This document shows, in pieces, positions 36,062 to 61,468 of a stretch of 64,000 nt of DNA; the first letter of the stretch is position 1; each line of letters begins with the position of its first letter. The position numbers and the translations under genes are program-made. The notes below the pieces were generated by a model. The model saw only the letters and a list, made by a program, of their open reading frames with translations. It searched no databases and was not told the DNA's origin. This DNA is from Armatimonadota bacterium (lineage in GTDB: Bacteria > Armatimonadota > Armatimonadia > Armatimonadales > Armatimonadaceae), in assembly GCA_031363095.1 (NCBI GenBank), contig JANLTX010000011.1:26575-90574 (forward strand), written 5' to 3'.

Positions 36062-36591
36062 AAAACGCTCCCTCCCAGGCGGCGGACGATCTCGCTCGCC
36101 ACGGTTGCCGGGGGGCGATCCGAGGTATCGACGACCATCTCGGCGAGGCGCTGGTAGAGCGGACCGCGCTCGCTCATCAGCCGGAGCACGCGCGTCAGGG
36201 GTTCTTCGTCGCCGCCACCCTCGGCCAGCAGGGGCCGCCCGGACGCCCGCTTGATCGTCCGCCGCACGACGATCTCCGGGCGCGCCGTCAGCCAGACAAC
36301 CCGCCCGGCTTCCCGCAGGGCCGAGGCGTTGTCCTCGCGCAGGGGCACTCCGCCCCCCGTGGAAATCACCTGGCGCTCTCCGGCGCAGACACCGAGAACG
36401 ACCTGGCTCTCGCGCTCCCGAAACGCAGCCTCGCCATCGGTGGCGAATATCTCCGGGATGCTTCGTCCCTCGATTCGGGTGAGCAAAGCATCGGTATCGA
36501 CGAGCTTCCAGCCAAGCTGGCGCGCGACCAGGCGGCCTACGGTTGTCTTTCCTGACCCCATGAACCCGATGAGAACGACGTTGCGGGACAT
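36058..36591 (-). CDS. aroK: Shikimate kinase
   Basis: VVLIGFMGSGKTTVGR, ISTGGG. ATGA-type overlap with aroB. Confidence 0.9.
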   Translation of the reverse strand: MSRNVVLIGFMGSGKTTVGRLVARQLGWKLVDTDALLTRIEGRSIPEIFATDGEAAFRERESQVVLGVCAGERQVISTGGGVPLREDNASALREAGRVVWLTARPEIVVRRTIKRASGRPLLAEGGGDEEPLTRVLRLMSERGPLYQRLAEMVVDTSDRPPATVASEIVRRLGGSVL

Positions 36592-38343: not shown

Positions 38344-38439
38344 ATCCTCTCCAAACTACCTGAAAAGCTGTCAAGAGAGAGATCGGGACTACCTCCGATG
38401 AGCGACAGCCCGATCTCTCCCACACTTACTTACCGTGGC

Positions 38440-39204: not shown

Positions 39205-39219
39205 GCTTTCTCAAAAAGT

Positions 39220-40116: not shown

Positions 40117-40125
40117 ACTGAAAAC

Positions 40126-40935: not shown

Positions 40936-40943
40936 ACGTTAAA

Positions 40944-41711
40944 CTATTGCCCCTTCGCCTCGTCCATGCCCGCCGCCGACGGACCACCCGCCTGGCCGCC
41001 ACCAGCGCCATAGCCGCCGCCACCGCCGTAGCCGCCACCACCGCCACCGGGAGGACCACCCACGCCACCGCCACCACCGCCCGCTCCACCGACGGAGCTA
41101 CCGCCGCCAGGAGGCGCAGGTGCCGCCACGGAGTTGGTTAGCTGCGCGACGACATCGATGTCGAAGCCCGCTGCGTTGGGATCGGCTTGCTGGCCAGGAC
41201 CAATCGTCTGGTTGGTCTTGGTGTTGGGCCAGCCATAGATTCCCTTCCAGCCGACTGCTTTGACGTCCGGGTTGGCCGACATCGCCAGGTAGTAGTTCGC
41301 GGCGTCGGAGAGCTTTTTCACCCGACCTTTGATGGCAAGCGTGTCGCCCTGAACCGTCATCGAGTTGTACTCGACGCGCGGGTCGGTGTAGCGTGCCGCT
41401 TGCTCGAAGATGCGAGGACGAAGCCCGTTGTACCAGCGGACCTGCTTGACGAAGTTGACCTTGGCCTTCAGCGGCGCAATCGTCGCTTCTTCAGCGTCGT
41501 TCTTGCTACGAAGCGTCTCGACCTCGGTGGCGCGGCGGTCGGCATCCGCCGCTTCGTCCGCCATCTTCACCTCGGCAGGTTTGACCTGGAAGAAGTGGTA
41601 GCCCAGCATCGCCCCAACGACTGCCGTCAGCAGTGCGATTGCCAGGACGTAGTGAGTCGTTCGCTTTTTTTGCTCACCGAGGTAAGCAGGTAGTAGGTTT
41701 ACTCGAAGCAT
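40944..41711 (-). CDS. pilN: PilN (fimbrial assembly) protein with glycine-rich C-terminal tail
   Basis: MLRVNLLPAYL followed by a TM helix. Tail GGGSSVGGAGGGGGGVGGPPGGGGGGYGGGGGYGAGGGQAGGPSAAGMDEAKGQ. Confidence 0.85.
   Translation of the reverse strand: MLRVNLLPAYLGEQKKRTTHYVLAIALLTAVVGAMLGYHFFQVKPAEVKMADEAADADRRATEVETLRSKNDAEEATIAPLKAKVNFVKQVRWYNGLRPRIFEQAARYTDPRVEYNSMTVQGDTLAIKGRVKKLSDAANYYLAMSANPDVKAVGWKGIYGWPNTKTNQTIGPGQQADPNAAGFDIDVVAQLTNSVAAPAPPGGGSSVGGAGGGGGGVGGPPGGGGGGYGGGGGYGAGGGQAGGPSAAGMDEAKGQ
40947..41110 (-). repeat. GC-repeat tract encoding the PilN tail
   Basis: See 40129-40300. Confidence 0.8.
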
Positions 41712-41762
41712 TGTCGATTACGCTCTCTCTGAATAGTCACGCCCAACCTATTGGAACGTCGA

Positions 41763-41787
41763 GGGGCCATTTTCCTTCAATGGCCCC
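41763..41787 (-). other. Intercistronic hairpin between pilM and pilN
   Basis: GGGGCCAT-loop-ATGGCCCC, 8-bp perfect stem, 10 nt downstream of the pilM stop. Confidence 0.6.
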
Positions 41788-41797
41788 GAAACTTTTC

Positions 41798-43219
41798 TCA
41801 GCGACCCGCCCCCAGCACGGCATCGCGCGTCGCGAGTCCCATGGCGACGGCCAGCGCGGGAGCCATCTGCGCCCGTGCATCCAGCGAGACCTGACGCGCC
41901 GTGACGTTGACCCCGGCGAAGGGATCGGCCACCACCGCCGTCAACCCGGTCTGGTACTGAACATAGTCCGCCAGCCCCGGAATCGAGGCAGAACCGCCGC
42001 AGAGCAGCACCTGATCGATATTCTCGGTCGGGTAGCGCGACTTGAAGTAGTCTATCGAGCGCTGGAGCTCCATGACGAACTCGCCCAGCACCGGACTCAG
42101 CGCGTAGAAAACTTCTTTCTGGCGGGTCGTCCGGGGGTCTTCAGGCACGGGAGCGGTCTCGGGTGCCAGGGCCGCCACAGGAGCCGCCTCGGCAGGCGCA
42201 CCGGGCGTATCGAAGGGATTGTCGTAGGAAATATCAAACGGGTTGTCGCCCGCAGGCACCTCTCCGCCTCCGCCTTCTCCGCCGCTGTAGAGCGAGGGCG
42301 GCAGGGGCGCGGCCAGATCGACATCGAACGGGCTGGAGATACCCGCATCGGTCGGCGCACTCCCGAAGATTCCGCCGCCGTCCGTCGGCTGGTTGACCAG
42401 ATCCATGAAGATCTTGCCGTTCTGCTTTTTTTCGTCCTCGGCGGCGTCCATGGGAAGCCCGAGTCGGTCGGCGACGGCCTGGGTGAAGTTGTCTCCGCCC
42501 AGCGGGATCGTACGCGGGAAGCGCAGAGTCGCCTGCTTGAAGATCCCGACATCGGTCATCGATGCCCCGAGGTTGACCACGACGACGTTCTTGTCTTTGA
42601 GGCCCTGGCTCGACAGGTTGATCAGCGCCCGCCCGACGGCAAGCGGCTCGACATCGATGGCAACCGGAGTCAGACCCGCCGCCTTGAGCGTCTCCAGATG
42701 CGCAAAGACCATGTCGCGCTGGGCGCAGGCAAGCAGAACCTCCATGTTGGGGTTGGCTTCGTCTGCGTCCACCGCCGGGTCGTCGATCTTCTGATAGCTC
42801 ATCTCGACATCGGTCGCGGAGAACGGGATGTGGCGCTCCACTTCCCACTTCATGGTCTCCGCAAGCTCTGAGAGACTCATCTTGGGAACTTCGATGACGC
42901 GAACGACGACCGCCGCAGCGCCCGAAGCCGCTGAGACGCACTTGCCGCGCGCCTTGACGCCGGACTTATTGAGCAGCGCCTTGATCGCCGCACCGAGTGT
43001 CTTGGGGTCAGACACGACGCCCTGGGAGATCGTCCCGAGCGGGGTCTTGTCGATCCCGAATGCAGTGACACGCAGGCCACTGCCCGACCCTGTCACTTCG
43101 ACGACCTTGATCGTCTGAGACCCGATGTCCAGCCCAACGAACGACCCGCCACTGGGCCTGGGAGCGCGGACTGCTACCGCCTTGGGCTGAGGTGAGGGCT
43201 TTGTCTTGCCACCTGGCAT
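41798..43219 (-). CDS. pilM: PilM (actin-like type IV pilus assembly protein) with ~90-aa acidic/Pro-rich insertion
   Basis: FVGLDIGSQTIKVVEV, VVVNLGASMTDV, VLLCGGSASIPGLADYV. The preferred start MPGGKTKP at 43219 is preceded by GGAAGGTGG. Confidence 0.9.
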   Translation of the reverse strand: MPGGKTKPSPQPKAVAVRAPRPSGGSFVGLDIGSQTIKVVEVTGSGSGLRVTAFGIDKTPLGTISQGVVSDPKTLGAAIKALLNKSGVKARGKCVSAASGAAAVVVRVIEVPKMSLSELAETMKWEVERHIPFSATDVEMSYQKIDDPAVDADEANPNMEVLLACAQRDMVFAHLETLKAAGLTPVAIDVEPLAVGRALINLSSQGLKDKNVVVVNLGASMTDVGIFKQATLRFPRTIPLGGDNFTQAVADRLGLPMDAAEDEKKQNGKIFMDLVNQPTDGGGIFGSAPTDAGISSPFDVDLAAPLPPSLYSGGEGGGGEVPAGDNPFDISYDNPFDTPGAPAEAAPVAALAPETAPVPEDPRTTRQKEVFYALSPVLGEFVMELQRSIDYFKSRYPTENIDQVLLCGGSASIPGLADYVQYQTGLTAVVADPFAGVNVTARQVSLDARAQMAPALAVAMGLATRDAVLGAGR

Positions 43220-43284
43220 GCTGCCACCTTCCTTACCATGAAGTGGGCCATTGTAACACGCCCACAAAATCCGTGTCAAGCACG

Positions 43285-43314
43285 AAGGCCGCCCGCACTT
43301 CTGCGGGCGGCCTT
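43285..43314 (-). other. Strong hairpin between the giant gene and pilM
   Basis: AAGGCCGCCCGCA-CTTC-TGCGGGCGGCCTT, perfect 13-bp stem. There is no good U-tract on the minus strand. Confidence 0.65.
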
Positions 43315-43342: not shown

Positions 43343-46300
43343 CTACGGTGCCTGTGACTCGAAGCGCGGAGCCAGGCTCTGCCAGAACAGATCGTAGCCT
43401 CGCGGCAGGGCATTCAACTGGTTCGGCCCGCCGATCACCCGCCCGGTACGCTCCCTCGGCGACGCCCAGAACATCCACATCTTGCCCGACTGAAGCTGCG
43501 GATCCGTGATCGCTCCTGTCACCAAATCGACAGGCGCGGGCCCGTTGGGTCGAACCGGCAACGGTGGCGCGAACAGATCGACGAATCCGAAGACCTGGCC
43601 TTCGTTGACCGACTTGGTCAGCGAGAGCGCCGACGGTCCGACCTGGCCCTCAATCGTCGGTGGCTGCTCCTCGATCATCCCCAGCCGGGTCTGCGGAACC
43701 GCCGGGTTTGCCGGAGTTCCAAACGCTCCCACGCGGTTCGTCCCCGTCGCCGGAGTGTAGATCGAGATGGCACCTCGGATCGGCAGCCCTTCGTAGAACG
43801 GATCGACGAAGATCTTTCCGGTCTTGATATCGACGTCGAACGCCACGGGCGTCCAGGCACCGAGCTGGACCTCGACAGTCACCCCGGCCAGCGCCGAGTT
43901 GAGCGTCACGAGATCGCGTGCTCCCAGCCCCAGAGTCTCGTTCTGGCCCAGAAGCGGGTTGCCCAGGTTGTCCAACGTCACCTTCAGGTCGATCCCGACG
44001 CGCCGGACGCTGCTGTAGAGTTCACTTCCCTTTTTGTCCGCAAGCTCTTTGCGCCAGAGCAGCCAGTGCCGTCCGGTGAAGACAGCGCCCAGAGGTCGCC
44101 GCAGGATGCTGTTGAAGCTGTTTCCGTTGGTGGTCTGAGCCGCTGTCCGCAGATCGGTGAAGGCGATGCTTCCCGTGTCCGCCGCGCCGTCCGGGGTGAG
44201 CCGGTACGCCTGCGGCTGGTAGGTCGCCAGAACCCGATCTGCGACTCCCGCCACTTTGACGCTGGTCGGAACGTCCACACCACGGAACCGGACGATGCCC
44301 GCCGAGGTGTCCACCAGAACCTGCAGAATGCCCGTGGGCCGCTGAATGTTCTGGAAGAGCGTCTGGCTCGCACTGTCCCACTGCCAGTTCGCCGCGACCG
44401 TCGTGACCGGAGGCCCGGCCTTGTAAGCAATCGTCACGACAGGTGCCGTGGGCACGGTCAGGTCGCGGTTCCAGGCGATGTGCCGGGAACGGTAGGCCGA
44501 CTCTCGCCCGAACTTCTCCAGCTCCTCGCCCGTGATTACAGGCAACGCCACCGGAACGAGCCGGGCGTTGAGACCCGCACCCGTCATCCGGAAGCGCGAC
44601 AGGAACAGATCCGGAGTCGAGGTGCTGCGCAGAACGCCTGTGTAGTAGACATCCAGCACCGGGACATTGCCATTGCCCACCGTCGCCAGCCGCCGGACGA
44701 CGGCGCTCGGCTCGGAGGCCGAGGCGATGGCTCCAGGAAGCTCCAGCGCCCGCTCCACCCGCCGCTGCGTGCTCAGATTGCCCGCATCCGGCGTCGCGGT
44801 CGGAGTTCCATTGGCATTGGCTGGAGTCGGGACGTAGTACAGCCCCCACTTGCCCGCCGGTCCGCCGTAGTACAGCGCCAGAGTCGTGCTCGTGCTCGGC
44901 TCGTAGGCTGCCCGCACCCCGTAGCGGCGCAGGTTCGGGTCGGCGTTCACCACGAGCGGCGCGACGCCCCCCGGCTGACCATCCGCTCCGAGCGGCGCGT
45001 ACAGGATCGTGTCGGTCGAGCTGCCGCCCGCGTTCGGGGTTGAGTTGATCCAAAGCAGGGTCGCCGCACTTGAGGTCGGCAGAACCTGCATCGCAAACGG
45101 AGACAGGTTCGACTGAAGCCCGGCCACCGTGCTGATCTCCACCGGCGTCGAGAACCAGCGTCCCTGCGCCGCCAGCGGATTGTTTACCGGAACCGCTGTC
45201 GCCGGGTTCGACGCCGACTGCCAGGTTCCGAGCGTCGCGTTCCACAGAAGCCGACTGAAGTAGAGCTTGTAGCTTCCCCCTGCTTCCGAGCGGACGAAGT
45301 AGACGTTGAGCGAGCCGTCGGCTCCCCGGTAGGCGGTCGGCGAGAGCGCCGAGGCAGGCCGGTTCGCCGTGGTGAGCGGGTTGATGATCGTCTCGCTCAG
45401 CGGGAACGTGTCCACGCCGGGCAACAGGCCGCTGAAGACCGTCGCAAGCGACGTATCGAGCAGCGGATTGTTCAGCGCAAAGTCGGGAATCTGGCCCGTC
45501 AGCGGCGCTTCTGAAACCTGGAGGCGCAGATCGACCGCCGGGCTGGTGTGTGGCTGATAGACCCAGTTCGGGTTGGCCCCACCCGTGTAGTTCTGCATCC
45601 GAAGCACGTTCCGGTCCGGAACCATCGGGTCAGATGTTCGGATGGGAAGGGTTCCCGGAGTCGGGTTGGATGCCCCCTGCGTGTTGAACCCGCCGTAGGT
45701 CGGGCCTGCCGTCGTCATCGCTCCACCGTTGAGAATCGGAACCGCGTTGTAGCCGCCGTTGGGCGTGTCGAGGTTCTCGAAGACCGCGAGCATCGGGGGT
45801 GCGCCGCTTACGTTGGACGCCGTGCTTTCGTAGATACCCGACGGTGTCCCGAGCGGCACCGCGACGCCGACCTTGACAGGCGTCGCCGTCACTCCGGCGA
45901 GCGTGTCGCTGCGCGGAAGGTCGGGCAGGCCGAGCACCGAAGGCGTCGAGTTGCCCGTCAGCGGTTTCTTGAGGGTGTGCCGTCCGTTGAACGGAGCGTA
46001 GAACCGTGCATAGTCTACCGGCGTGACCAGTGTCTGGACATGTGTCGTCCAGGCCGCGTCCAGGTCGGCATCGAGCGACGTGACGACGTGCGGCATGAGG
46101 TTCGCCGTCTGAAGCGACGCCAGCGGGTCGGCTCCCACCGAGAGAATCCCGAACTTGTCGTCCACGGCGCTGGACTTCAACCCGAAGTAGTAGAAATTCT
46201 GTCCACTCCCGAAGTTGCCCGAGCCAGGAAGCGTGGGCGGAGCCTCCACTTTCTGCGACGACCGCAGGTTCCACAGGTTGACGTTGCCCGTGTTGAACAC

Positions 46301-49300
46301 GGTCATCGGCTTGAAGTAGCTGGCATCGTAGGGCGTCTTGCCCGCAGCACCAAGCGGATTGAGCGGACCGGGGACGAACCCGGATGCGAACGCGCCGGGA
46401 GTCTGGCCGTAGCCAAGCAGACTGTTCTCCATCCCGAGGCCCTGCGGCAGTCGCCCCAGGTCCACCAGTGTGGGCTTGCTGTCGGTGGTATTGCTGGAGC
46501 CAAGCCCGAGGTCAACCGGGACACCTGCCCAGACCTCGACCTCGCGGTACGGCTCGTTGTTGTCCCGAATCCCGTTGTTGTTCGTGTCCACCCAGACCTC
46601 GGCCAGCGATGTGTACCCGTAGGGCGCGATGGTCGCGTTGCCGGTGGGAACTCCCGTGACCGGATTGATCGACTGGAGCGAGCGCGGCGCGTTGGCGATA
46701 GCCCCGGCAGGTGCCATGATGCTACTCTTGCGCGGAAGCTGGAGCGGCCCCGAGATTCCCCCGGTGAACGCGCCATCATCCGTCGAAGGCTGCTTGTATG
46801 TGGACGTGAGCGAGTGCATCGCCGCGAGGTTCGCGGGCTGATGCTGCGGAATCCGCACGGTCAGCGAGGCCGCGAACTGATTGAGCGCCAGCAGCGCATT
46901 GGTGTCGGCCAGCCCCACAATAGGATTGATAGCACCACGCTGGTTAGCAGCGATGTTCAACTGGCCGTTGGGGATCTGCCCGCCGCCCTTGGTCAAGTCC
47001 TGACCGCCCAGCATCACCGAGACGTTCTGCGAGCCGCTGGAGCTGGTCGTGGTGCCCGGAATGTCCGGATAGTCCACGCTCGACCCGAGGTTCTGGGTCG
47101 CCTCCGACGGATCGACGGGTCGCCACGGCGCGTAGGCCGAGGCCGCCGTGGGCCGAGACTCCCAGGGAAGCGGGTTGATGACGCCATCGCGTCCCATCCC
47201 TGTCGGGGTCAGGCGCGGGTTCGCCGTGTCTTCATCCGAGTTCGGGATCACGGTCGGCCACCAGCGCCAGTTCAGGTCACGGATAACCTTGACGCGGATG
47301 TTGTCCAGCCCGGCCTGAGCGCTTCGGTTCACAATGCGCAGGTTTTTCTGATTCGGCGCGATGTCCGAGCTGGCGCTGCGCCCGTGCTGGCCGTAGCCCA
47401 GGCCCACCGCAACCGGGACGTAGAACGTCGGGTCGTTCGCCCCGTTTTCATCTTTGAGAACTTTCTCAAAGTTCGGGTTCAGATTTCCCATGGAGTCGTA
47501 GCGGTTCAGCTCGACACGCGTGATCTGGTTGCCGTTGGCGAGCGCCTGGCTGAACTCGTAGCTTGCCCGGTCGGGGTCGCGGGTGCCGTTGCTGGCTCCC
47601 ACATCGGCCACCGCGCTGGCAGCGTCGCCCGGCCCCCCGGCTCCCGTGGCCGTCCGGAACGGCCCGATGCCGTTCATCAGCTTACCTTCAGCGTTCTCGA
47701 CGACTGCGGGGATGTTGCCCGTGGTCTGGACCAGATGGCCCTGAACCCCGAGCGGGTTGGCGACGAACAGGTCCGGCTCGACATTGTCACGCTGCGAGAG
47801 CGCATCGATGCCCGAGTTGCGGCTGATCGGCACGACGCCCGGATAGGGCGGCAGGCCCAGGTGGACGATGTTCGAGCCACCGGCCACCGAGACATGGAGC
47901 TTCTGCCCCGGCGTCTGCCCGGAGATGTTAATTTCGTAGAACGCGACACCCAGGCGGCTCGGGTGTGAGTTCGCTGAGAGCGTCCCCGCGCCGTAGTCCG
48001 GAACGTACGGATACGTAACGACCGTCCCGGCGGATGTCGGCAGATTGACGGTAGTCGTTCCGTTTTTGCCCGAGATCACCAGGTTCACCTGGAACGAAGG
48101 GGGCGGCGCAGGCGGGTTCGCCGGAATCGGGAAACCGGTGGTGGGATCGGTGATGTAGCTCGGCGCGACCACGGGGACATCCCAGATCACGACGTAGGCT
48201 TTCTGGCCCCACTCGTAGAGGTTCTTCTTGCCCTTCGCCGCACGCGACAGAACGTCGAGCGTCACGCCGCCATCGGCAGGAAGCGGAAGGCCCGGATCGC
48301 GGCGCGGTCTGCGAGGCGTCCCGGCATTAGCCGCCGCCTGGAGCGCGACGAAGTCCGCCTGGTCGAAGATATCGACCTTGGTGAACGGAACGCCATCGCG
48401 ATTCAGTGCAATCGGGACGTTGCGCGGACGACCGAAGCCGTTGCGCTCGCCCGACGGGAAGACCGGCGTGATCTCGTACAGAACGCCCAGAGTGCTTCCG
48501 ACGTACAGCCAGGCGACGCGGTGCCCAGCCGGGTTGACGTTGTCGAAATCGTCGCTGCGAACCCCGCCGCTGGCGACCAGAGCCACCGCACGCTCGGCGT
48601 CCGAGACGGGACGCTCTGGCGTGAAGGCCGGGTTGCCAATTCCGGTGTAGCCCGGCAGGCGGTACTTGCCCGCCTCGTTGTTGTTGCCCGGAGGCAGCGT
48701 CGGGTCGAGAGTCGTCGCGTAGGTTTTGTCGTAGAACAAGCCGTTCAGGTCGAGCGGGAAGCCGCTCTGCCCGGTGTGCTCGTCGGCCAGGAGCGGCGCG
48801 GGCACCGCAGCCGGGTTTCCTTCAAACAAGGGCCGGGGCCGGAAGTGAGGCCGGGGCGCATCGTTGTGGAGCGATGCCTGCGCCGCAGGCTCCAATTCGG
48901 GATAGTAGGCGAAGTCCACCGACGGATCGGCACCGTTCTTGGCACGCCAGGCGAGCCGCCGCGCCGTGAAGTCGGTGTCCAGGCTCTCGTGGTAGGCATT
49001 GGTGAACGAGACCACACCCGTGCCCGGTCCGCCCAGCCCAAACAGGCTCAGATGAATGACGTGCTCGGGGTTCAGGCGATCCAGGCTCCCCTCGACTACT
49101 GCCCAGCCCAGGGTCGAGCTGCCGTCTTCCCCTTCGATGTTGGCGCTGATCTCGTAGAGCGAGCCGCTCTGGCTGTCCGAGCCGTGGGTCGTCACCCAGA
49201 GAACCGGGTACTGATACGCCGTATTTTCCAGGTTCGCCGCCGGAGTGATCGTCGGATCGAGGAACGCACCACGCGTCGTGGTGAGCGGATCGTCGATGTC

Positions 49301-52300
49301 CTGGTTGACGTAGCGCGCTGTCAGGTCCGTGGTCGGTAAGACCGGGACGACAAGCGTCATGTTGTAGTAGAAGTTGGTGATGTTCCCCAGAACGTTGGTA
49401 ACCACCGGAGCATCGTCCGTGGGCAGAAGCGGGACGCTCGGATGCGCCGCGTTCACCTGTGGCCCCACGGTCGCCGGAACCGTCGGCAGTCCGTCAGCGG
49501 CTACCTTGGCGGTCGGGTTGTTGCGGTTCTGTAGCGGCCCGCCCGTGATCGTGATGCTCTCGACCGCTGTCGGGTCGTTGTCGAGGTTCAGAGCACGAGC
49601 CAGAATCCGGTTGAACGCAAAGGCGTCTTTCCCGCCGACGCGTAGCATCGGATTGACCGGGTTTGCGGGATCGTTCGGGTTCAGAAGGTCGCGCAGACCG
49701 GCATCGGCCACGTTCCCTGTCCAGAGCGGGCCGGGAATCACCGTGTCGGTCGGGAGCGCCTGCTCCTGCGGCTGGCCGCTGTCGCGGTAGCGCACCAGAA
49801 GCCCGGTGTCTTCGTCGATGTCAATCGCGTAGAGCCGCCCCTTGCCGCCGACCGCGCCGCCGCCGACGTAGAGAGTCGGGACCGGCCTTCGCGCCGGAGC
49901 CGCCGGACTGGCCGCCGTCGAGGGCGCGTTGCGCTGCTGGATAATCGGACGCCCGAAAGCATCGTACTGATCGTAGACCGGTCGATAGATCCACGACGGC
50001 GTCGCGCGGCTCAGCGTCCCGCCCAGAAGCGGATTGACCCACTGATCCAGCGCAAGGCCCGCGATGCGCGAGTTGGCTGCCGGAGCCGCAGCCGCAAACG
50101 GCGTCGAGGTACCGATGGCCACCTGGGGCGTCGGGTTGGTCAGAAAGTCGCGCCGATCCCCAATCTGATCTAAAAGAAGAAGCCGTCCAGTCGTGCTACC
50201 CGGATCGTTGACCGAGACCGCGACGTAGCGCCGAATCCCTGAGAGCCGGGTATCGTCCGGGTCGAGGTACGGGAAATCGACCAGCGAGACGCCGCCTTCG
50301 ATGGGTGCAAAGCCCGCCTGACGACTCGCCAGTCGGTTCGCCCCGAACACAGACGAGAAGTCCGGGTCTTCGAACTCGAATTTCTGGGTCAACTGGGTGT
50401 TCTGGTACGTATTGGGGAACGCCCAGCGCGGACGAAGCGTCCCTTCCAGGCGCTCGGCATCGACCACGCCGTTCCCATCGAGGTCGGTGGCGACCTGGAC
50501 GTTGTGGAACCAGCGGTCGTCGTTGAGGGCCGCCGCCGAGTTGGGCGCAGGAGCTGCGGCGACCGGGTCGCCGGGCGTCCCGTCGAAGACCATATTGGTC
50601 TCGTGGTTGCCGCGCGTGACCGGCCCCTGCCAGTCCAGACAATAAACTCGCCCCTCACCGCTCGTGACGTAGACGCCCTTGCTGCCCAGGCCCGCGATGC
50701 GCGGGTGCGCCCAGCTCGAAACGGCAGGCGTCGCATTGATCGCGCCGCCCTGGCCACCGGCCAGCGTTCTAAACCACCACTTCAGCTCGCCGCGATGGTC
50801 GTTCGCTTCGGTAGCATCGATGTAGGCAATCGCTCGAAGAGTAGCCGTCGGGTTGATGAGCTGCTCGCCCTTGCGGAAGCCAAGCGGGAGCGGCTTGCCC
50901 GTGCCGTCCACGCCGCTTGCTCGCGCCCGCGCATCGAGGGCGTACAGAACGCCGTTCTGGTTGCCCACGAACAGGCGCGGCTCTTGCGTCGCTGTGTTCA
51001 GAAGTCCGTCGTCGTCGGGGCGCTCCCAGGCGATGGTCGGCGAGGACGCCGCGTAGCCTGCGGGAACAGGAATCTCGGTCTTGAGACGCTTGCTGTACTC
51101 CTGGAATGTCTCCGGGTTTGCTCCCGTGGTTATGCGCGGGTGCGACTTCGGCTCGAAGACCCACAAAACGTTGGTCGTTCCATTGCGGAAGTTGCCCAGC
51201 TTCGTCGTGTCGGCGGCGTGCTCGAAGTAGCGGTTGTCGTTGTTCCCGAACGGGTCGAGCGCCAGAAGAGTCCCGTTGGGTAGCGCGACGAACGCCACGG
51301 GCATCTGAATCGCCTGGCGGATCGGCACTCCCGGTTTCGAGTAGCGCTCCGGAGCGGAGTCGGCGACGCCCACCATGTTGGTGTTGGTCGCGTCGTAGGT
51401 CGGCACCTGTGCGGTTCCAAAGACGCTGATCCCTGGAACGACGGTCACAGAAGCATGCGCCCCACCGGAGAAGTCGCCGCGTAGAAAAATCTCGTTGTCC
51501 TGGATCGCGCCGTCGGGGTTGCCCTCGGCACCGCCATCGAACGAGATCACATTGGCGATCTGATAGACCACATCATTGGGAGGATTACTGAAGTTATCGG
51601 TTCCGATTCTGGGGTTGCGCGGCCCGCCTGGCAGGTGCGTGCGGTCAGGGAAACGCCAGATCACGGTGCGGGTCGCCGAGTCGAGGCAATAAATGCTCGT
51701 CACCGGAATCGTCCGGGTCGCGTCCACTGCGCTGGGCAGGAAGTCCGTGCGGACCACCAGCACCTGAGCGTTCGAGAAGAACGGAATCTGGTCGGGTCCG
51801 TTGCGATATGCCTGATGGTTCTCCGCGTTCACCTGATTGGTTCGGACGCCCGCCGTGGTGCGCGGATCGATCAAAGAAAGCGGAGCCTGGAACAGGACGC
51901 TCGGGTTTGCCCGGTCGCCGTTGTTGACATCGAAGGCCGGATCGCGCGGATTATTGGCAAAATCGAACGAGTCGTTGGGATGCGCGGTGCCTGTCCCGGT
52001 GACCATCGGGTTGGTTGCGTAGTTCGTCCCGGCAGCGGGCTGCTGGATCGGAATTCCCGGAGGCAGCGCCCCGGTGTCTGTCTTGCGTCCCCCGTGCGGC
52101 CCGACCATCGTCGGGGCGGCGTAGTACGCAAACGCATGCTGGTCGAACTCCACCAGATCGGCCACGACAACTTCACCGGCCTGCGGATTGGTGTGCGTCG
52201 TCACCAGCTGAACCGAAGCGCGGGCCGTAACCCCAACCGTCGGGCCGCCGCCTATCGTCGGAGCACCTGTGTAGGAACGCTCGGTCACCATCGGGAAGTA

Positions 52301-53155
52301 GGCCCGGCTGCCGTCGTCGGTGTTGGTCAGATAAAACTCACCACCGACCTCCTGAGAGATCGTGTAGATCTTGGTTTTAGTGACAAACTGTCCTGGCACG
52401 AGCGCCCCCGACGCGTCTCGGAACGGCTCGTGGTACGTCACCGTGTAGCGGGCGTCCTCGATGCGCTTCTCGACCTGAGGAATCGTCGGGTCGGGATCGG
52501 GAATATGAATTTTTATCGCAAAGCGCCGGAACTCACCGGCGCGCCCCGCGACGCGCGGGTACCAGACGAAGCGCCGGGCCGGAGCCGTGGGCGCGGTCGC
52601 CGGAGCGCAGTGATACTGGGCGTCCACGCCGCCGGGCGTGTTCGCGCCCGTCGAAGGCCCGGTCTTGGCGATCCAGGCCGGATCGAACCCGACCACTGCC
52701 GTCGTCAGGGGCGAGATCGGCGTTCCGGGAGCCAGCGGAAGCGCGACGGCGGGAAGCTGGTCGTCGGCAATCGCAGACGGAAAGAGCGCGTCGGAGAAGA
52801 CCTGCCCGCCCATGTCGAAGTAGGTGCCGTTGTGAGCGAACTGCGTGTCCCCTCCCTGCGTAGCCTGCGGGTACGGCCAGACATCCGGCTGAACCGAGGC
52901 ATCCGGGGAGAAGCCCATGCGGGAGTAGGGAACCTGCCGCGCCGTCGCGTTCCCCTGGGTGATTCCCAGCAGATGGTCCCCGCTCATCCGTCCTCGCTGG
53001 CGGGTGTCCCCCTTGGCGGAAGGAGCCGGGTTCAGCGCCGACTGGCGATGGGTGGCACCGGGCTTGGGCAGGTGGTCGGTCTGAGCCCAGGCAAGCCCAG
53101 GAAGGACCGCCAGAAGCGCAGCCATGCACGTCGATGTACGCAACAGAGACATCAT
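43343..53155 (-). CDS. Giant (~3270 aa) secreted protein, beta-propeller/PilY1-like motifs, function unknown
   Basis: Preferred start MMSLLRTSTCMAALLAVLPGLAWA (signal peptide) at 53155. PQQ/BamB-like strand motifs (NGVLYALDA, GRVYCLDWQG, GRLYAIDID). EF-hand-like loops DLDGNGVVDAE and DTNNNGIRDNNE. Uninterrupted ORF of ~9.8 kb. Confidence 0.8.
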   Translation of the reverse strand: MMSLLRTSTCMAALLAVLPGLAWAQTDHLPKPGATHRQSALNPAPSAKGDTRQRGRMSGDHLLGITQGNATARQVPYSRMGFSPDASVQPDVWPYPQATQGGDTQFAHNGTYFDMGGQVFSDALFPSAIADDQLPAVALPLAPGTPISPLTTAVVGFDPAWIAKTGPSTGANTPGGVDAQYHCAPATAPTAPARRFVWYPRVAGRAGEFRRFAIKIHIPDPDPTIPQVEKRIEDARYTVTYHEPFRDASGALVPGQFVTKTKIYTISQEVGGEFYLTNTDDGSRAYFPMVTERSYTGAPTIGGGPTVGVTARASVQLVTTHTNPQAGEVVVADLVEFDQHAFAYYAAPTMVGPHGGRKTDTGALPPGIPIQQPAAGTNYATNPMVTGTGTAHPNDSFDFANNPRDPAFDVNNGDRANPSVLFQAPLSLIDPRTTAGVRTNQVNAENHQAYRNGPDQIPFFSNAQVLVVRTDFLPSAVDATRTIPVTSIYCLDSATRTVIWRFPDRTHLPGGPRNPRIGTDNFSNPPNDVVYQIANVISFDGGAEGNPDGAIQDNEIFLRGDFSGGAHASVTVVPGISVFGTAQVPTYDATNTNMVGVADSAPERYSKPGVPIRQAIQMPVAFVALPNGTLLALDPFGNNDNRYFEHAADTTKLGNFRNGTTNVLWVFEPKSHPRITTGANPETFQEYSKRLKTEIPVPAGYAASSPTIAWERPDDDGLLNTATQEPRLFVGNQNGVLYALDARARASGVDGTGKPLPLGFRKGEQLINPTATLRAIAYIDATEANDHRGELKWWFRTLAGGQGGAINATPAVSSWAHPRIAGLGSKGVYVTSGEGRVYCLDWQGPVTRGNHETNMVFDGTPGDPVAAAPAPNSAAALNDDRWFHNVQVATDLDGNGVVDAERLEGTLRPRWAFPNTYQNTQLTQKFEFEDPDFSSVFGANRLASRQAGFAPIEGGVSLVDFPYLDPDDTRLSGIRRYVAVSVNDPGSTTGRLLLLDQIGDRRDFLTNPTPQVAIGTSTPFAAAAPAANSRIAGLALDQWVNPLLGGTLSRATPSWIYRPVYDQYDAFGRPIIQQRNAPSTAASPAAPARRPVPTLYVGGGAVGGKGRLYAIDIDEDTGLLVRYRDSGQPQEQALPTDTVIPGPLWTGNVADAGLRDLLNPNDPANPVNPMLRVGGKDAFAFNRILARALNLDNDPTAVESITITGGPLQNRNNPTAKVAADGLPTVPATVGPQVNAAHPSVPLLPTDDAPVVTNVLGNITNFYYNMTLVVPVLPTTDLTARYVNQDIDDPLTTTRGAFLDPTITPAANLENTAYQYPVLWVTTHGSDSQSGSLYEISANIEGEDGSSTLGWAVVEGSLDRLNPEHVIHLSLFGLGGPGTGVVSFTNAYHESLDTDFTARRLAWRAKNGADPSVDFAYYPELEPAAQASLHNDAPRPHFRPRPLFEGNPAAVPAPLLADEHTGQSGFPLDLNGLFYDKTYATTLDPTLPPGNNNEAGKYRLPGYTGIGNPAFTPERPVSDAERAVALVASGGVRSDDFDNVNPAGHRVAWLYVGSTLGVLYEITPVFPSGERNGFGRPRNVPIALNRDGVPFTKVDIFDQADFVALQAAANAGTPRRPRRDPGLPLPADGGVTLDVLSRAAKGKKNLYEWGQKAYVVIWDVPVVAPSYITDPTTGFPIPANPPAPPPSFQVNLVISGKNGTTTVNLPTSAGTVVTYPYVPDYGAGTLSANSHPSRLGVAFYEINISGQTPGQKLHVSVAGGSNIVHLGLPPYPGVVPISRNSGIDALSQRDNVEPDLFVANPLGVQGHLVQTTGNIPAVVENAEGKLMNGIGPFRTATGAGGPGDAASAVADVGASNGTRDPDRASYEFSQALANGNQITRVELNRYDSMGNLNPNFEKVLKDENGANDPTFYVPVAVGLGYGQHGRSASSDIAPNQKNLRIVNRSAQAGLDNIRVKVIRDLNWRWWPTVIPNSDEDTANPRLTPTGMGRDGVINPLPWESRPTAASAYAPWRPVDPSEATQNLGSSVDYPDIPGTTTSSSGSQNVSVMLGGQDLTKGGGQIPNGQLNIAANQRGAINPIVGLADTNALLALNQFAASLTVRIPQHQPANLAAMHSLTSTYKQPSTDDGAFTGGISGPLQLPRKSSIMAPAGAIANAPRSLQSINPVTGVPTGNATIAPYGYTSLAEVWVDTNNNGIRDNNEPYREVEVWAGVPVDLGLGSSNTTDSKPTLVDLGRLPQGLGMENSLLGYGQTPGAFASGFVPGPLNPLGAAGKTPYDASYFKPMTVFNTGNVNLWNLRSSQKVEAPPTLPGSGNFGSGQNFYYFGLKSSAVDDKFGILSVGADPLASLQTANLMPHVVTSLDADLDAAWTTHVQTLVTPVDYARFYAPFNGRHTLKKPLTGNSTPSVLGLPDLPRSDTLAGVTATPVKVGVAVPLGTPSGIYESTASNVSGAPPMLAVFENLDTPNGGYNAVPILNGGAMTTAGPTYGGFNTQGASNPTPGTLPIRTSDPMVPDRNVLRMQNYTGGANPNWVYQPHTSPAVDLRLQVSEAPLTGQIPDFALNNPLLDTSLATVFSGLLPGVDTFPLSETIINPLTTANRPASALSPTAYRGADGSLNVYFVRSEAGGSYKLYFSRLLWNATLGTWQSASNPATAVPVNNPLAAQGRWFSTPVEISTVAGLQSNLSPFAMQVLPTSSAATLLWINSTPNAGGSSTDTILYAPLGADGQPGGVAPLVVNADPNLRRYGVRAAYEPSTSTTLALYYGGPAGKWGLYYVPTPANANGTPTATPDAGNLSTQRRVERALELPGAIASASEPSAVVRRLATVGNGNVPVLDVYYTGVLRSTSTPDLFLSRFRMTGAGLNARLVPVALPVITGEELEKFGRESAYRSRHIAWNRDLTVPTAPVVTIAYKAGPPVTTVAANWQWDSASQTLFQNIQRPTGILQVLVDTSAGIVRFRGVDVPTSVKVAGVADRVLATYQPQAYRLTPDGAADTGSIAFTDLRTAAQTTNGNSFNSILRRPLGAVFTGRHWLLWRKELADKKGSELYSSVRRVGIDLKVTLDNLGNPLLGQNETLGLGARDLVTLNSALAGVTVEVQLGAWTPVAFDVDIKTGKIFVDPFYEGLPIRGAISIYTPATGTNRVGAFGTPANPAVPQTRLGMIEEQPPTIEGQVGPSALSLTKSVNEGQVFGFVDLFAPPLPVRPNGPAPVDLVTGAITDPQLQSGKMWMFWASPRERTGRVIGGPNQLNALPRGYDLFWQSLAPRFESQAP

Positions 53156-53202
53156 AAATCGGCTTTCAAATTCCTTCGTCGCACGCTTAATCACGAAATG
53201 GT

Positions 53203-56200
53203 TTACAGACGGTCCGCGAAGAGTGGTTGTTCCAGCGGATGCGTCGCGGACGCAGCCCCCATTCTCTGGGTGACCGTAGCGCGGCGCGGTGCCGCACTCG
53301 GAACCTTCACACTCCACGACGGCGTCGCGAAGTTCCCAAATCTCGGCTGCTCCGGCACACCGGGAAGTTGCACGAAGCGCAGACCGCCCGTCACCTCCAG
53401 AACCTCGCCCCGGAACTTGCCGTCCTCGAACAGACCCGATGGCCCACTTGCTGCGTTGGCGATGAGAATGTTCCCGTTCGGCAGACGCTGCGCCGACACC
53501 GGGTGGAACTTCGGTAGCTCCATTGGATCGATAGCATCGGCTGTGGGAGCGGCCTGGGAAACTCTCAGTCTATTGATCCGGTCGTAGTCGGCTTTGTTCA
53601 TGAACCAGGTTGCGACCAGAACTCCGCCCGCGTCTTTTTCCAGCTGGTAGACCCCGTTGGCGTCGCAGATCAGGTAGATCACCCGGATGCCGTTCGGTCC
53701 CGTCCCTCCGCGCAGGGTGAGCTGCTGGAAGAACGTCGGGCGGGTGACATGATACAGATAGTCCGCAGTCACTGTATCCGTAGCCCCTGTCATCGGATTC
53801 GTGATCTCCGTCCCGGCTTTGAACGTGAACGACTCGACGACCTGAGCGACCAGCCCGTTGGTGGCAGGCTCGTCCGTGGCGGGCACCAGCGGCCACGGAT
53901 AGCCCGACTGGATCGGGAAACCGCTCACAGGCCAGGCTCCCAGCGGCAGAACGGCTCCCGTCGTGGCGTTTCTCAGCACAAAGAGCGTGTTGAGAGGCCG
54001 GTAGTCGAGCTTGACTATCGAGCCGCCGGTGAAGTCCGCCGAGGCCGACCCACCCGACGCCGTGGCGTTGTCGATCACCGCGATGAGCTGCGGGATGCCC
54101 GAGACGTTCCCCTCGGTGACGTAGGTTCGCTGGACGCTCTTGAAGCTGAACTTGCGTCCCTGCTTCGAGTAGGTCTTGGACGACCACACGACGACTTTCT
54201 CGCCATTGGGCCGAATCCTGCCCTGATTGTCGCGGTAGTCCACGACCTCGATCACCCGGAAGTTGCCCGAGTCGGCGATCAGGTAGTGCTCTTCGTAGCC
54301 CTGCACCGGCAGGTTGAACGGGTCCGCCGGGTCGAAGGTCGGCTGGACATAGAGCTGGACATCCGTCGGGTTGTTGAGCGACTTCGGATCGGTCGGCTCT
54401 AAAACGTTGTACGGATCGTTGAGCCGGTTTATTTCCTGACGAATCGCGGCGGCACGCGTGGCCCGGACGATCCGTCCGTTGCCGGTGTCGGCGATGAGAT
54501 AGTCGTTGCTGGAGAGCCGCCGCGCGACACTGGGCCGGGTCAGGCCGCGCCGCTCCGTAACGGTCCGCGCCAGGTCCGGCGGGGGTGGCTGGGTGGGATC
54601 GAAGATCGGCTGTGCGCCGCCGACGGTCTTCGAGTCCACGGTTCCGTCCATCGCCCAGAGCGGCGTGCCGTCGCCGCCGACCTCGATGATGCGGTTGCTG
54701 TCGGCGATCAGCGTCGTCGAGTTCTCGTAGGCGAACGTCCCGCGCCAGTCTGTAGCGGGCGCTCCAGGAGACAGCGTGTTGGCGACCAGAATATCCGGGC
54801 CTGCCGTGATCGCCGCCACCGAAGGAACCGCGCCGTCGCCGAGCCGTTGCACCCAGCGGACATGGTTGACGGCCACGTTGATCGGGGTGCCACCGGGCAG
54901 ACGGGTCAGCGAGTCGAAGACATTGCGAACGGCCTCGCCCGCGCGGACATCCGGGTCGGTCGCCGCCGGGTCGCTGTCCACGGCGACAATGCCAGACTGC
55001 GTCGGAATGTAGATCATGTCGCCTACCCGGCTCGCGGCCCCGGTCGGAGTGACGGGCAGAGCGTAGTACCAGAGCAGCGGGTTGTAGTCCTGCGGCAGCG
55101 ACGCAGTGTCGGCCACATCGTTGACGCCATTGTTGATCGTCTGAAGCCGGGCCGACGGCGAGATGACCTCGGTGATCGGCTGGGTTCCGCCCTGCGGCGT
55201 GTACGACACGACGAAGCTCTGGCTGGACGAGAACCGCCCGCCCTGAGAGACCATGTTTCGGATCGTGATCCGCCCGGCGTCGGCGTCGCCATCGAGCACG
55301 GCGTTGGAGACATTGTTGTTGCCGTTGTTCGGGCTGAGCGTCGCCGTGATCGTCCGGACGGGGTTTGTGGCGTCGCCCGGATGGGTCATACCATTGGCCT
55401 GCGCGATCTGAACCGGCGCGTTCGGGTTGTACGGCTTGATGCGAAGCGTCACGTCGCGGTCGGCATCGAACGCCGCCAGAATCGTGAAGTTCCCGCCTGC
55501 CGTTCCCCGGAACAACTGGTAGGCCACTCCCGTTTCCGACGCGATGATCGGCGGGCCGACCGGCGTGACCTCAACAAACGGAACCACCGAGTTCTCTGGA
55601 AGAACGCCTGCACTGCTCCCTGGCCCCAGCGGACTGAAGCCGCTGAACGGGAAACGGAACGTCGCTCGCTCGATCACGGTGCGGGTCTGACCGTTGACCT
55701 CGAACTCCATCGGAACGGCGATGTTGCCGACGTTCTCCAGGACGGTAAACGACTGACGAAGCTTGGTCGCGCCGATGCCGAACTGCTCACGTGCTCCAAG
55801 AAAGACAGACTTGGTCTGACCCGATCCCGATGCGCCGGAGCTGGCGCGGGCGGCGAAGAACTGGATGTCGTCGGGGCCGAGTGCGGTGGTTTCCAGGCCA
55901 CCCATGTAGTCACTGATTAAAAGGGCAGGGCCGTTGCCGCTGGGCCGCGAGCCATCGCTGCCCGCCGCCAGACCCGGCGGGACGCCAGGGCCGGGACCGA
56001 CCGGGACATACAGCAGGTCGTAGTCCACCGAGACGATCAGCGGCGTTCCCGGCGGCGGCGGATTGTTCGCGCCGTCGCGCACCTGAACCAGGCCCGCGTC
56101 GGTAACCGCGTTATTGGTGTAGAGCAGACTCTCGATACCCGCTTCCATGTTGGCACGGTTGTCGTAGACCCGCGCCTTGGGACGAATGAAGTACGGCAGC

Positions 56201-61449: not shown

Positions 61450-61468
61450 TTCCTGAACTCTCTTCTCG

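Follow-up and report, generated by a model that had tools for sequence, protein, structure and literature searches.

Gene organization of the locus

The window (the whole 64,000-nt stretch of DNA analysed here) carries the gene for a 3270-aa protein, hereafter the giant protein, which is the last and largest member of a six-gene operon on a single strand (Table 1). The operon encodes, in order, proteins of 325, 659, 709, 1106, 1675, and 3270 aa, i.e., 7744 residues in total; the genes for the first two, both pilin-like, sit just past the window end. The 325-aa protein matches N_methyl and DUF1559 and is GspG-like, while the 659-aa protein has a PilV N-terminus (E 1.9e-9); these two and the 709-aa protein carry Glu5. 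Intergenic gaps range from -4 to 47 nt where the starts are clear; the 1106-aa gene, taken from its nominal start, shares ~98 nt with the 709-aa gene. The operon follows the order fimU-pilV-pilW-pilX-pilY1, in which the giant protein occupies the PilY1 position.

Beyond the giant gene lies a pilMNOPQ set followed by aroK and aroB, which we take to be a T4aP-type arrangement. A sigma-70-like promoter (11/12; 43250-43279) and a hairpin separate the giant gene from pilM, and the hairpin may mark the operon end. Wherever a locus has sufficient flanking sequence, the genes appear in the order 709-1106-1675-giant, and distant families (G138, G073) preserve this order as well. The giant gene is found within ~0.2-1.5 kb of a variant pilM in more than 20 genomes from many families, and roughly one in two close relatives carries the module away from pilMNOPQ. 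In the genome, 8 ATPase and 6 secretin matches reveal several type IV filament systems, so the partner machine of the module is not certain.

Table 1. Features of the locus, with coordinates in the window and residues numbered from the ATG at 53155.
Feature	Coordinates	Strand	Remarks
aroK and aroB	34988-36591		after pilQ
pilM (variant), pilN, pilO, pilP, PilQ-N paralog, pilQ secretin	36667..43279	minus	downstream of the giant gene
GC-rich hairpin	43285..43314	minus	directly after the giant stop; without a clear U-tract
Giant-protein CDS	43343..53155	minus	ATG at 53155; 3270 aa plus stop; full-length homologs
Near-C-terminal block GYDLFWQSLAPRFE, residues 3253-3266	43358..43399	minus	family consensus GYD[LIV][FY][WY]Q[TS][LI]AP.F[EQD]
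C-terminal core, ~residues 2155-3240 (~1100 residues)	43436..46693	minus	phylum-wide; conserved across Armatimonadota
Predicted C-terminal 5/6-bladed beta-propeller, then beta-sandwich, ~residues 2600-3180	43616..45358	minus	AF2, Foldseek
DTNNNGIRDNNE loop, residues 2190-2201	46553..46588	minus	low-confidence hairpin between two predicted strands
Predicted PQQ/BamB-type beta-propeller with long inserts, ~residues 463-1130	49766..51769	minus	AF2, Foldseek, profile
DLDGNGVVDAE loop, residues 891-901	50453..50485	minus	lineage-specific insert; low-confidence model loop
Canonical EF-hand-type loop, residues 540-555	51491..51538	minus	family consensus D-x-N-x-D/N-G-x-I-x-D-D-E
Sec-type signal peptide, residues 1-24	53084..53155	minus	MMSLLRTSTCMAALLAVLPGLAWA followed by Q; predicted cleavage between AWA and Q, read by eye
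1675-aa secreted protein	53203..58230	minus	Sec signal, DUF4159, weak PQQ/NHL matches; tail ...EQPLFADRL-COOH
PilX-like pilin-type protein, at most 1106 aa	58246..61566	minus	N-terminal hydrophobic helix without Glu at +5; without Pfam match
709-aa prepilin-type protein	61469..63598	minus	N_methyl, FTLVE

The giant protein and its family

The reading frame (43343..53317, minus strand) is open and uninterrupted, and the gene is real, since ~25 full-length Armatimonadota homologs with 31-62% identity conserve it at the protein level, evenly along the whole length; this disposes of a spurious ORF in GC-rich DNA. The public gene call (P0002) places the start 10 residues downstream, giving 3260 aa. 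The mature protein, from residue 26, comprises 3245 aa (343.9 kDa, pI 5.55), and the composition is 10.7% A, 9.8% G, 9.5% P, 8.4% T, and 6.1% N, with only four Cys, one of which lies inside the signal peptide. A sequence-only reading of the same DNA had described a single uninterrupted ORF of ~9.8 kb encoding a 3270-aa secreted protein with a signal peptide, rich in P, G, T, N, and A and almost free of Cys; the frame and the homologs bear out the ORF, the composition agrees, and the N-terminus, inspected by eye, reads as a Sec signal.

The N-terminal sequence contains neither a class III (prepilin) signal nor a lipobox, and the giant protein does not qualify as a type IV pilin, having no N_methyl match and a Sec signal instead of a Glu5 helix. 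No TM-like segment was found after the signal peptide, the C-terminus included, nor was a membrane anchor or an outer-membrane beta-barrel signature, and no tandem DNA repeats were detected in the gene. Pfam and NCBIfam searches returned nothing usable, the sole line being glutaredoxin-like (E 0.056). Free of repeats and with a mass of 344 kDa, the giant protein is all-beta and, as its N-terminus reads, exported by Sec. Several known classes of large secreted proteins were considered and rejected: a repeat-array adhesin, as tandem repeats are missing; an RTX, cadherin or dockerin-like Ca-repeat protein, as only isolated loops are present; and a substrate of T9SS, PEP-CTERM or LPXTG sorting, as there is neither an NCBIfam match nor a C-terminal TM-like stretch.

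The C-terminal core is present in 89 of 151 Armatimonadota genomes, and the propeller segment in 15 of the 151; the giant and 1675-aa families are both absent from families f5, f10, and f25, and PilM occurs in all 151 genomes. A profile of the core matched 507 clusters among 1.84 billion proteins, 431 of them at E <= 1e-10. The best 150 of these 507 matches are members of the giant family or fragments thereof, and in the complete matches listed, proteins of 2000-3800 aa end with the core at the C-terminus. A Golvesin_C domain is present in some relatives. Conservation of the giant protein is among the highest over its last 20 residues, and the tail that follows the GYDLFWQSLAPRFE block is variable; by analogy with the tails of PilC/PilY proteins, the block is a candidate docking element. 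Profile alignment (hhalign) of the giant family with its positional equivalent in G032 is weak but plausible (probability 62%, E 7.6e-5), and that with the equivalent in G056 is a degenerate 2-column alignment. Paralogy between the giant protein and its 1675-aa neighbour was not found by BLASTP (best E 0.37).

Predicted domain architecture

AF2 models were built for 1200 residues each, with residues 25-439 and 1640-2070 left out. The alignments used for folding were shallow (23-28 rows), as a metagenome scan added only 7 loci. In each 1200-residue model, ~40% of the residues have pLDDT < 50, and residues 1131-1639 and 2071-2599 are poorly modelled.

In the PQQ-type region, the block-mean pLDDT is mostly 65-90, with short low-confidence loops, and Foldseek relates this model to PQQ (quinoprotein) dehydrogenases and WD40 propellers. 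The family profile retrieved v31Bagel8 (E 1.9e-15) and 3hxj (E 0.0085) from the PDB. Among the 14 family members scanned and distant orthologs, some pass the Pfam cut-offs (PQQ_2, 6.4e-12; Beta-prop_ACSF4, 1.7e-12); the giant protein itself falls under all Pfam cut-offs for PQQ propellers. This propeller lies in the variable N-terminal third and is strongly conserved only inside its own family. Four strand motifs and two acidic loops had been singled out from the letters alone, together with a PQQ/BamB-like propeller around the motifs, to be checked by structure prediction and Foldseek. All six are where they had been reported, and the check does predict a propeller fold around three of the four motifs: GVLYALDA (735-742), RVYCLDW (836-842), and RLYAIDID (1107-1114) fall in predicted strands of the PQQ-type propeller, an assignment on which AF2, Foldseek, and the profile agree, whereas GVLYEITP (1557-1564) lies outside it. 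As in the eight-bladed PQQ/BamB propellers (PQQ_2, PQQ, 3hxj, and the Bagel/Cake designs), the blade motifs read G-x-[LV]-Y-[AC]-[LI]-D ... W-x-F; however, the blades of the giant protein are broken by long inserts, and the likeness is one of fold and repeat class, not of function.

The C-terminal propeller region was modelled with a block-mean pLDDT of mostly 65-93, and Foldseek matched it with probability 1.0 to 7bwb (2.1e-7), 1yrz, 2fhr, Neu2, and NanI. The propeller-then-sandwich architecture predicted for this region is shared with the five-bladed GH32/GH43 and six-bladed sialidase propellers, but identity in the fold matches is only 8-12%. Asp-box, FRIP, WMNDP, and other catalytic signatures are absent from the giant protein and all ~25 homologs, and no sequence match to a glycosidase family was obtained in Pfam, NCBIfam or the PDB. 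On the predicted model, the likeness to GH32, GH43, and sialidases is one of fold class only.

Calcium-type loops

An EF-hand pattern (ligands at positions 1, 3, 5, and 12; Gly at 6) is found at residues 2190-2201 and 891-901 of the giant protein and at 540-551 in most orthologs. The sites in the giant protein stand in a beta context, without flanking helices. The pattern D.[DN].[DN]G..D occurs twice in the giant protein, as compared with a mean of 0.0135 in 20,000 composition-preserving shuffles, of which a fraction of 0.0001 reach two. In the 2190 loop, ~400 residues ahead of the C-terminal propeller, D2190 is invariant and G2195 and E2201 are nearly so; the giant protein reads DTNNNGIRD, and its orthologs DxNGDGxxD or DxNGNGxxD. 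The calcium motif of PilY1 type is Dx[DN]xDGxxD (PMC11331964), and several orthologs fit it at this loop. The 891-901 loop is found only in the giant protein and its closest, 65%-identical relative (L031). Of the two DxDxNG loops initially proposed, both are in place; that at 2190-2201 proved conserved, and that at 891-901 lineage-specific. The 540-555 loop, which the sequence-only reading did not list, is interrupted by a 4-residue insert (DGGAEGNPDGAIQDNE) in the giant protein and its two closest relatives. From these sequence patterns, we infer that the loops of the giant protein may bind calcium.

Possible roles of the giant protein

We propose that the giant protein is the terminal, non-pilin part, and the adhesin, of a tip or priming complex of type IV pili that is oversized and typical of Armatimonadota, a reading to which we give about an even chance. 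The protein would be exported to the periplasm by Sec and would there join a complex built on the four pilin-like proteins, three with Glu5 and one a Glu5-less PilX-like cap, which the 1675-aa secreted protein would also join. The C-terminal ~1100 residues, comprising the propeller, the sandwich, and the conserved block, would hold it in the complex, while the variable N-terminal two thirds, with the PQQ-type propeller, an EF-type loop, and further beta domains, would face outward in an adhesive or ligand-sensing role. Pilus location, C-terminal docking, and adhesion are what we infer from the operon layout, the conserved synteny, a PilY1-like conservation pattern, the Sec signal without a pilin helix, TM segment or known sorting domain, the conserved 540 and 2190 loops, and the lack of a canonical PilY1 match in the genome and in 151 genomes of the phylum, all of which support the tip reading. 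It is weakened by the lack of PilY1 homology, the absence of a W-R-E-hydrophobic tail, the size of the protein, the hairpin and promoter, the frequent unlinking from pilMNOPQ, the presence of several type IV filament systems in the genome, and the more PilY-like tail of the 1675-aa neighbour. To our knowledge, no pilus tip component shown to cross a secretin comes near the size of a 344-kDa protein in a 7744-residue module.

That size makes passage through the secretin hard to picture, which would suit an envelope-resident accessory instead, i.e., a periplasmic or outer-membrane plug, cap or scaffold at the secretin that never leaves the cell on a fibre. The adjoining pilMNOPQ set is consistent with such a part, and in P. 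aeruginosa, the minor pilins together with PilY1 are reported to shape how the machine is built in its non-piliated state (PMC11525922). However, a membrane anchor, a lipobox, and an outer-membrane beta-barrel signature are absent, the variable N-terminal two thirds resemble an exposed, fast-evolving surface rather than a machine part, and the module and pilMNOPQ are often not linked; we regard this explanation as quite unlikely. Unlikely, too, is that the protein is a cargo or surface-displayed exoprotein, lectin-like and glycan-binding or else glycan-degrading, which a pilus- or T2SS-like machine exports without its being part of the tip. The Foldseek matches to GH32 fructofuranosidases, GH43 xylosidases, and sialidases at probability 1.0, the Sec signal without a pilin helix, the Golvesin_C domain of some relatives, and the GspG-like first gene of the operon all point in this direction, as does the Fimbriimonas annotation, which lists a T2SS and numerous genes of PulG type (PMC4072686). 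Against it stand the missing glycosidase matches in Pfam, NCBIfam, and PDB sequences, the absence of Asp-box, FRIP, and GH32 motifs across ~25 homologs, and the presumed T4aP-type arrangement of pilMNOPQ-aroK-aroB; moreover, T2SS cargo is not normally fixed in a minor-pseudopilin operon across a whole phylum.

The sequence-only reading had regarded the protein as a possible oversized PilY1 analog, with a role inferred from the C-terminal propeller of P. aeruginosa PilY1, whose EF-hand-like Ca site governs pilus extension and retraction. The analogy stands as far as the minor-pilin operon position beside pilMNOPQ is concerned: the protein lies next to core minor pilins, has a Sec signal, and is not a pilin. 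The PQQ-type propeller, however, is in the variable N-terminal third and not a conserved C-terminal domain as in PilY1, and homology was not recovered by Pfam, PDB profile or Foldseek. PF05567 (T4P_PilY1) gave no match in the giant protein at E <= 0.1, in 14 family members at E <= 0.01 or in a six-frame search of its own genome at E <= 1; nor did it match in 151 Armatimonadota genomes, a weak negative, as no control genome matched at E <= 0.001. No PilY1 chain was retrieved when the family profiles were compared with all PDB sequences at E <= 10, and PilY1 is outside the top 50 Foldseek matches for both models. A true but extremely diverged PilC/PilY1 family member, for which the shared operon position, a PQQ-superfamily propeller, and a Dx[DN]x[DN]GxxD loop (PMC11331964) could be cited, is therefore very improbable; its conserved C-terminal propeller is of another fold class, and the best 150 of the 507 core-profile matches are all giant-family members or fragments. 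PilC/PilY proteins dock to PilX via C-terminal tails with W, then R, E, and hydrophobics in the last ~10 residues (PMC13711793), whereas the GYDLFWQSLAPRFE block lies 4-20 residues from the end and has another pattern. The strictly terminal conserved tail of the 1675-aa neighbour is more PilY-like, and as a stand-in for PilY1 this neighbour suits equally well or better. The giant protein may thus be a PilY1 analog by position, not a demonstrable homolog; on the tip-complex reading, it would work like PilC/PilY1 without detectable kinship, which we hold with middling confidence.

Significance

Knowledge of pilus tips is mostly proteobacterial, with PilY1/PilC capping the fibre, mediating adhesion, and sensing surfaces. 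Armatimonadota, which inhabit soils and fresh waters, appear as a whole phylum to be without PilY1; at the corresponding place in the operon they keep a constant group of very large proteins that lack annotation. Should these proteins be located on the pilus, they would set a new upper bound for display by a type IV machine, represent a second, independent solution to capping and adhesion, and provide a function for ~500 orphan giant-protein clusters. Such a system has a candidate dock in the conserved core and tail at the C-terminus and a candidate ligand-binding head in the variable propeller, in addition to the two Ca-type loops that are conserved. More speculatively, and with considerable doubt, four oversized pilins and two giant propeller proteins might form a ~7,700-residue Armatimonadota tip complex whose non-pilin parts are unrelated to PilY1, with the giant protein as a 'grappling head' that recognises glycans in a Ca-dependent manner and is anchored through its conserved C-terminal propeller. 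If so, a ~0.8-MDa complex would pass, or assemble outside, the secretin by a route not known from any studied type IV pilus.

Comparison with known systems

The closest counterpart by organization is PilC/PilY1 (PF05567; 3HX6), which is likewise large, Sec-exported, and non-pilin, is encoded after pilV/pilW/pilX-type genes, and contains a beta-propeller. Both have a conserved C-terminal part with a strongly conserved C-terminal end and a variable N-terminal part, and a loop of the giant protein with the pattern Dx[DN]x[DN]GxxD resembles the Ca motif of PilY1. In contrast to PilY1, the giant protein is three times larger and is accompanied by a second giant of 1675 aa; its PQQ-type propeller is N-terminal and variable, its C-terminal propeller belongs to the 5/6-bladed GH32/GH43/sialidase class, and the two share neither sequence or profile similarity nor a specific fold match.

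In lineages other than Proteobacteria, the PilY1 cap role has been suggested to fall to different bulky proteins, and Thermus thermophilus ComZ and the beta-solenoid PilX of cyanobacteria (PMC13759059) offer a precedent for an oversized component of the minor-pilin set acting as a cap without PilY1. ComZ and PilX are pilins with an inserted solenoid, whereas the giant protein has neither a pilin helix nor a predicted solenoid; unlike in those systems, the pilins of its operon are themselves oversized, at 325-1106 aa.

The giant gene and its operon

The gene for the 3270-aa protein that ends the pilus-type operon (the giant) is real and conserved. In agreement with the sequence-only reading, it forms a single open frame with a signal peptide-like N-terminus and a Cys-poor composition rich in A (10.7%), G (9.8%), P (9.5%), T (8.4%) and N (6.1%), with four Cys only. 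The public gene call (P0002) is 3260 aa long and starts ten residues downstream. Judged by eye, the N-terminus (MMSLLRTSTCMAALLAVLPGLAWA, then Q) resembles a Sec signal peptide, and no prepilin motif, lipobox or TM-like stretch after the signal was found by sequence inspection. The mature protein has a computed mass of 343.9 kDa and a pI of 5.55, and a search of its DNA for tandem repeats found none. Long antisense frames lie over the gene; coding DNA of 65% GC is expected to contain them, and they are not counted as genes.

The giant is the last of six tightly spaced same-strand genes, which encode 7744 residues in total. Three of the four pilin-like proteins, read from operon genes 3 and 4 and from locus L022, carry Glu at +5. 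The absence of this Glu is expected of a terminal PilX/GspK-type subunit (PMC13759059), and the ~1100-aa pilin-like protein fits such a cap subunit by its sequence; as listed, its gene overlaps the preceding one by ~98 nt, so the true start is probably later. Downstream of the giant, just past a hairpin, a sigma-70-like promoter begins precisely where the pilM ORF has its nominal TTG start; the real start is probably further downstream, as the Pfam match covers pilM only from residue 49. The promoter is followed by pilM, pilN, pilO, pilP, a PilQ-N paralog, pilQ, aroK and aroB. pilMNOPQ may be a separate transcription unit.

Features of the operon and related loci (window positions unless a locus or contig is named)
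Feature	Position	Strand	Description
Operon gene 1			325 aa; N_methyl + DUF1559; GspG-like N-terminus (E 1e-11); FTLIE
Operon gene 2			659 aa; N_methyl; PilV N-terminus (E 1.9e-9); TSLVE
Operon gene 3	61469-63598		709 aa; N_methyl; FTLVE
Operon gene 4	58246-61566		up to 1106 aa; pilin-like hydrophobic helix; no Glu at +5 (SLTVA...)
Operon gene 5	53203-58230	-	1675 aa; Sec signal; DUF4159; weak PQQ + NHL
C-terminal tail of gene 5	53203-53235	-	terminal motif
Operon gene 6 (giant)	53317 to 43343	-	open frame; ATG at 53155 gives 3270 residues
Antisense frames in giant gene	45548-47968 and others	+	up to 806 aa
Hairpin	43285-43314		GC-rich; downstream of giant
Promoter	43279-43250	-	sigma-70-like, 11/12; TTGACA, 18 nt, TACAAT, with TG
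Locus with +5 evidence	L022 2170-5139
Slot-filling gene, G056 (f16)	L040 1528-8148
Slot-filling gene, G032 (f21)	L041 7255-13128
Slot-filling gene, G092 (f36)	L042 1891-7095
Ortholog with Golvesin_C, G138	L036 4457-11038
Second pilM, window's own genome	contig C7 24424-25470		canonical

Domain architecture and Ca-type loops

Pfam and NCBIfam scans of the giant itself found nothing. The PQQ-type propeller that had been proposed is nevertheless predicted by profile matches, AlphaFold2 and Foldseek. The profile of residues 440-1639 matches in the PDB designed PQQ-type propellers (v31Bagel8, E 1.9e-15; "cell surface protein", 8e-8) and the natural PQQ-like propeller 3hxj (E 0.0085), and distant orthologs pass Pfam PQQ_2 (6.4e-12), PQQ, Beta-prop_ACSF4 (1.7e-12) and Golvesin_C (3.4e-17). 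The last of these lies ahead of the PQQ blades in some orthologs (P0023 and that of G138 among them) and maps roughly to giant residues 508-605, an insert with an EF-type loop at 540, although the mapping is uncertain at 26% identity.

AlphaFold2 models were built for one 1200-residue piece (28-row alignment) and for the C-terminal 1200 residues; residues 25-439 and 1640-2070 lie outside them, and residues 1131-1639 and 2071-2599 are poorly modelled. In the first model, residues ~463-1130 form an all-beta region predicted moderately to well (pTM 0.69), the rest being poor. Foldseek against the PDB returned only propellers for it (E 5e-5 to 1e-2), including Lgl2/Sro7, Lis1, the quinohaemoprotein alcohol dehydrogenase 1kb0 and the methanol dehydrogenases 4tqo and 1w6s. 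The four strand motifs and two acidic loops lie exactly where the sequence-only reading had placed them; predicted strands coincide with GVLYALDA, RVYCLDW and RLYAIDID, and GVLYEITP falls in the poorly modelled part, where blade matches are insignificant. The second model is confident for residues ~2600-3180 only, where a beta-sandwich comes after five or six blades of four strands each.

The pattern D.[DN].[DN]G..D occurs twice in the giant against 0.0135 expected by composition, and at least two occurrences arose in 0.0001 of 20,000 shuffles. Of the two putative Ca-type loops, conservation holds for one. In the loop 2190-2201, D2190 is invariant and G2195 and E2201 nearly so in the homolog alignment, and ortholog versions (DANGNGIWD, DINGDGRFD, DSDNDGLYD, etc.) lie between two conserved strands. 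The loop 891-901 is a lineage-specific insert, common only to the giant and a 65%-identical relative (DLDNNGVFNSE) and absent from all others aligned. A third, previously unreported loop of canonical 12-residue pattern (e.g., DKNGDGYISDDE) is conserved at aligned position 540; in the giant and its two closest relatives it carries a four-residue insert. Extra Dx[DN]x[DN]G loops occur sporadically at aligned positions 475, 919, 1683, 1816 and 2068, in single lineages and always in variable inserts, within which such loops, the 891 loop of the giant included, seem to come and go.

Distribution across Armatimonadota

Among 5.8 billion proteins searched, 24 homologs of 2159-3737 aa were found, nearly all aligned over their full length at 31-62% identity; those named are Armatimonas sp. 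Twenty-one loci in reference genomes and seven in metagenomes are all from Armatimonadota (Armatimonadaceae, Armatimonadia, Capsulimonadales). The genome of the window gave no 16S match, and these relatives are what places it in Armatimonadota, probably Armatimonadaceae. Identity is ~22-58% in every 50-residue bin, and this even conservation indicates a multi-domain protein and excludes a low-complexity spacer.

The profile of the C-terminal core (the last ~1100 residues) has a match in 89 of 151 genomes sampled from Armatimonadota (61 of 98 genera). A family nearly always has it in all its genomes or in none, and the matching open frames of complete genes are ~2050-3820 aa long. Against 1.84 billion cluster representatives, it matched only 507 proteins (431 at E <= 1e-10), and every full-length match among those listed formed the C-terminal end of a protein of 2000-3800 aa. 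Strong conservation of the propeller segment is confined to its own family (five genomes), with weak conservation in ten more genomes (15/151). Thus, the C-terminal ~1100 residues are conserved and the N-terminal two thirds variable.

All relatives with sufficient flanking sequence keep the 709-1106-1675-giant order; about half of the close ones have pilMNOPQ next, and the others unrelated genes. More than 20 genomes, spread over many families, have a variant pilM within ~0.2-1.5 kb of the giant, and distant families repeat the entire layout (G138: 1021, 1545 and 2193 aa, then pilM; G073: 571 (N_methyl), 906, 1437 and 2170 aa, then pilM). Of the 151 genomes, 111 contain the 1675-aa family, in most cases adjacent to the giant. 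Families f5, f10 and f25 lack both, and PilM is present in all 151 genomes. In G056, G032 and G092 the core is undetected, yet a 1734-2206-aa gene fills the slot between a 1675-type gene and a pilM variant; the C-terminal propeller of the giant can be aligned weakly to one of the three (probability 62%, E 7.6e-5).

Proposed function and comparison with PilY1

These analyses show the giant to be a Sec-exported, non-pilin, two-propeller protein whose gene keeps the last place in a minor-pilin-type operon across the phylum. The most likely reading, to which we give about an even chance, places it in an oversized tip or priming complex. It would be held there through the conserved C-terminal core, and the variable N-terminal propeller region could serve as an adhesive or sensing head, perhaps Ca-dependent. 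The size of the giant is a real difficulty for a tip model. The genome holds eight T2SSE-type ATPase and six secretin matches (contigs C7, C14, C47, C82, C84, C86, C106 and C143), with no ATPase match on the window's contig; these several type IV filament systems and the second, canonical pilM on another contig weaken the tip or priming reading. On C7, that pilM forms a compact second system with a secretin and an ATPase. We consider it rather improbable that the giant is instead an envelope-resident accessory of the pilus machine.

An exported glycan-binding or glycan-degrading protein is unlikely, if slightly less so. The C-terminal model matches GH32 fructofuranosidases (7bwb, 2.1e-7), GH43 xylosidase (1yrz), trypanosomal and human sialidases, NanI and measles haemagglutinin with Foldseek probability 1.0, but the likeness is of fold only (8-12% identity); the C-terminal profile matched no PDB sequence, and Asp-box, FRIP and WMNDP motifs are absent from all homologs examined. 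That the giant is a very diverged true PilY1 is highly improbable. The suggested similarity to the PilY1 C-terminal domain was not found: PF05567 had no match in the giant, 14 relatives or the genome at E <= 1, no PilY1 chain was among the PDB matches of the family profiles at E <= 10, and PilY1 was absent from the top 50 Foldseek matches of both models. No canonical PilY1 was found across the phylum, the lack of PF05567 matches in the 151 genomes being a weak negative since no control genome matched either.

A literature search found no description of giant-type proteins, and the paper on the Fimbriimonas genome goes no further than a count of pilin-like genes (PMC4072686); the giant and its system are uncharacterised and surprising in scale. 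The analogy with PilY1 keeps its support from operon position only. In several orthologs, the 2190 loop fits the PilY1 Ca motif Dx[DN]xDGxxD (PMC11331964). The last ten residues of PilC/PilY hold a W-R-E-hydrophobic tail (PMC13711793), which the giant lacks; its own strongly conserved block, GYD[LIV][FY][WY]Q[TS][LI]AP.F[EQD], is followed closely by a variable end. In the 1675-aa neighbour, by contrast, the conserved tail is strictly terminal, ...QxMG(7-9 aa)L[LI]EQP[L]F[AG]DR[LQR]-COOH; it is phylum-wide and kept even in distant families (VIPVFADRR, IEQPSFADRR). This tail recalls the PilC/PilY docking tail by position and differs from it in sequence; because it is strictly terminal and phylum-wide, the neighbour is by this measure a better PilY1 stand-in than the giant.
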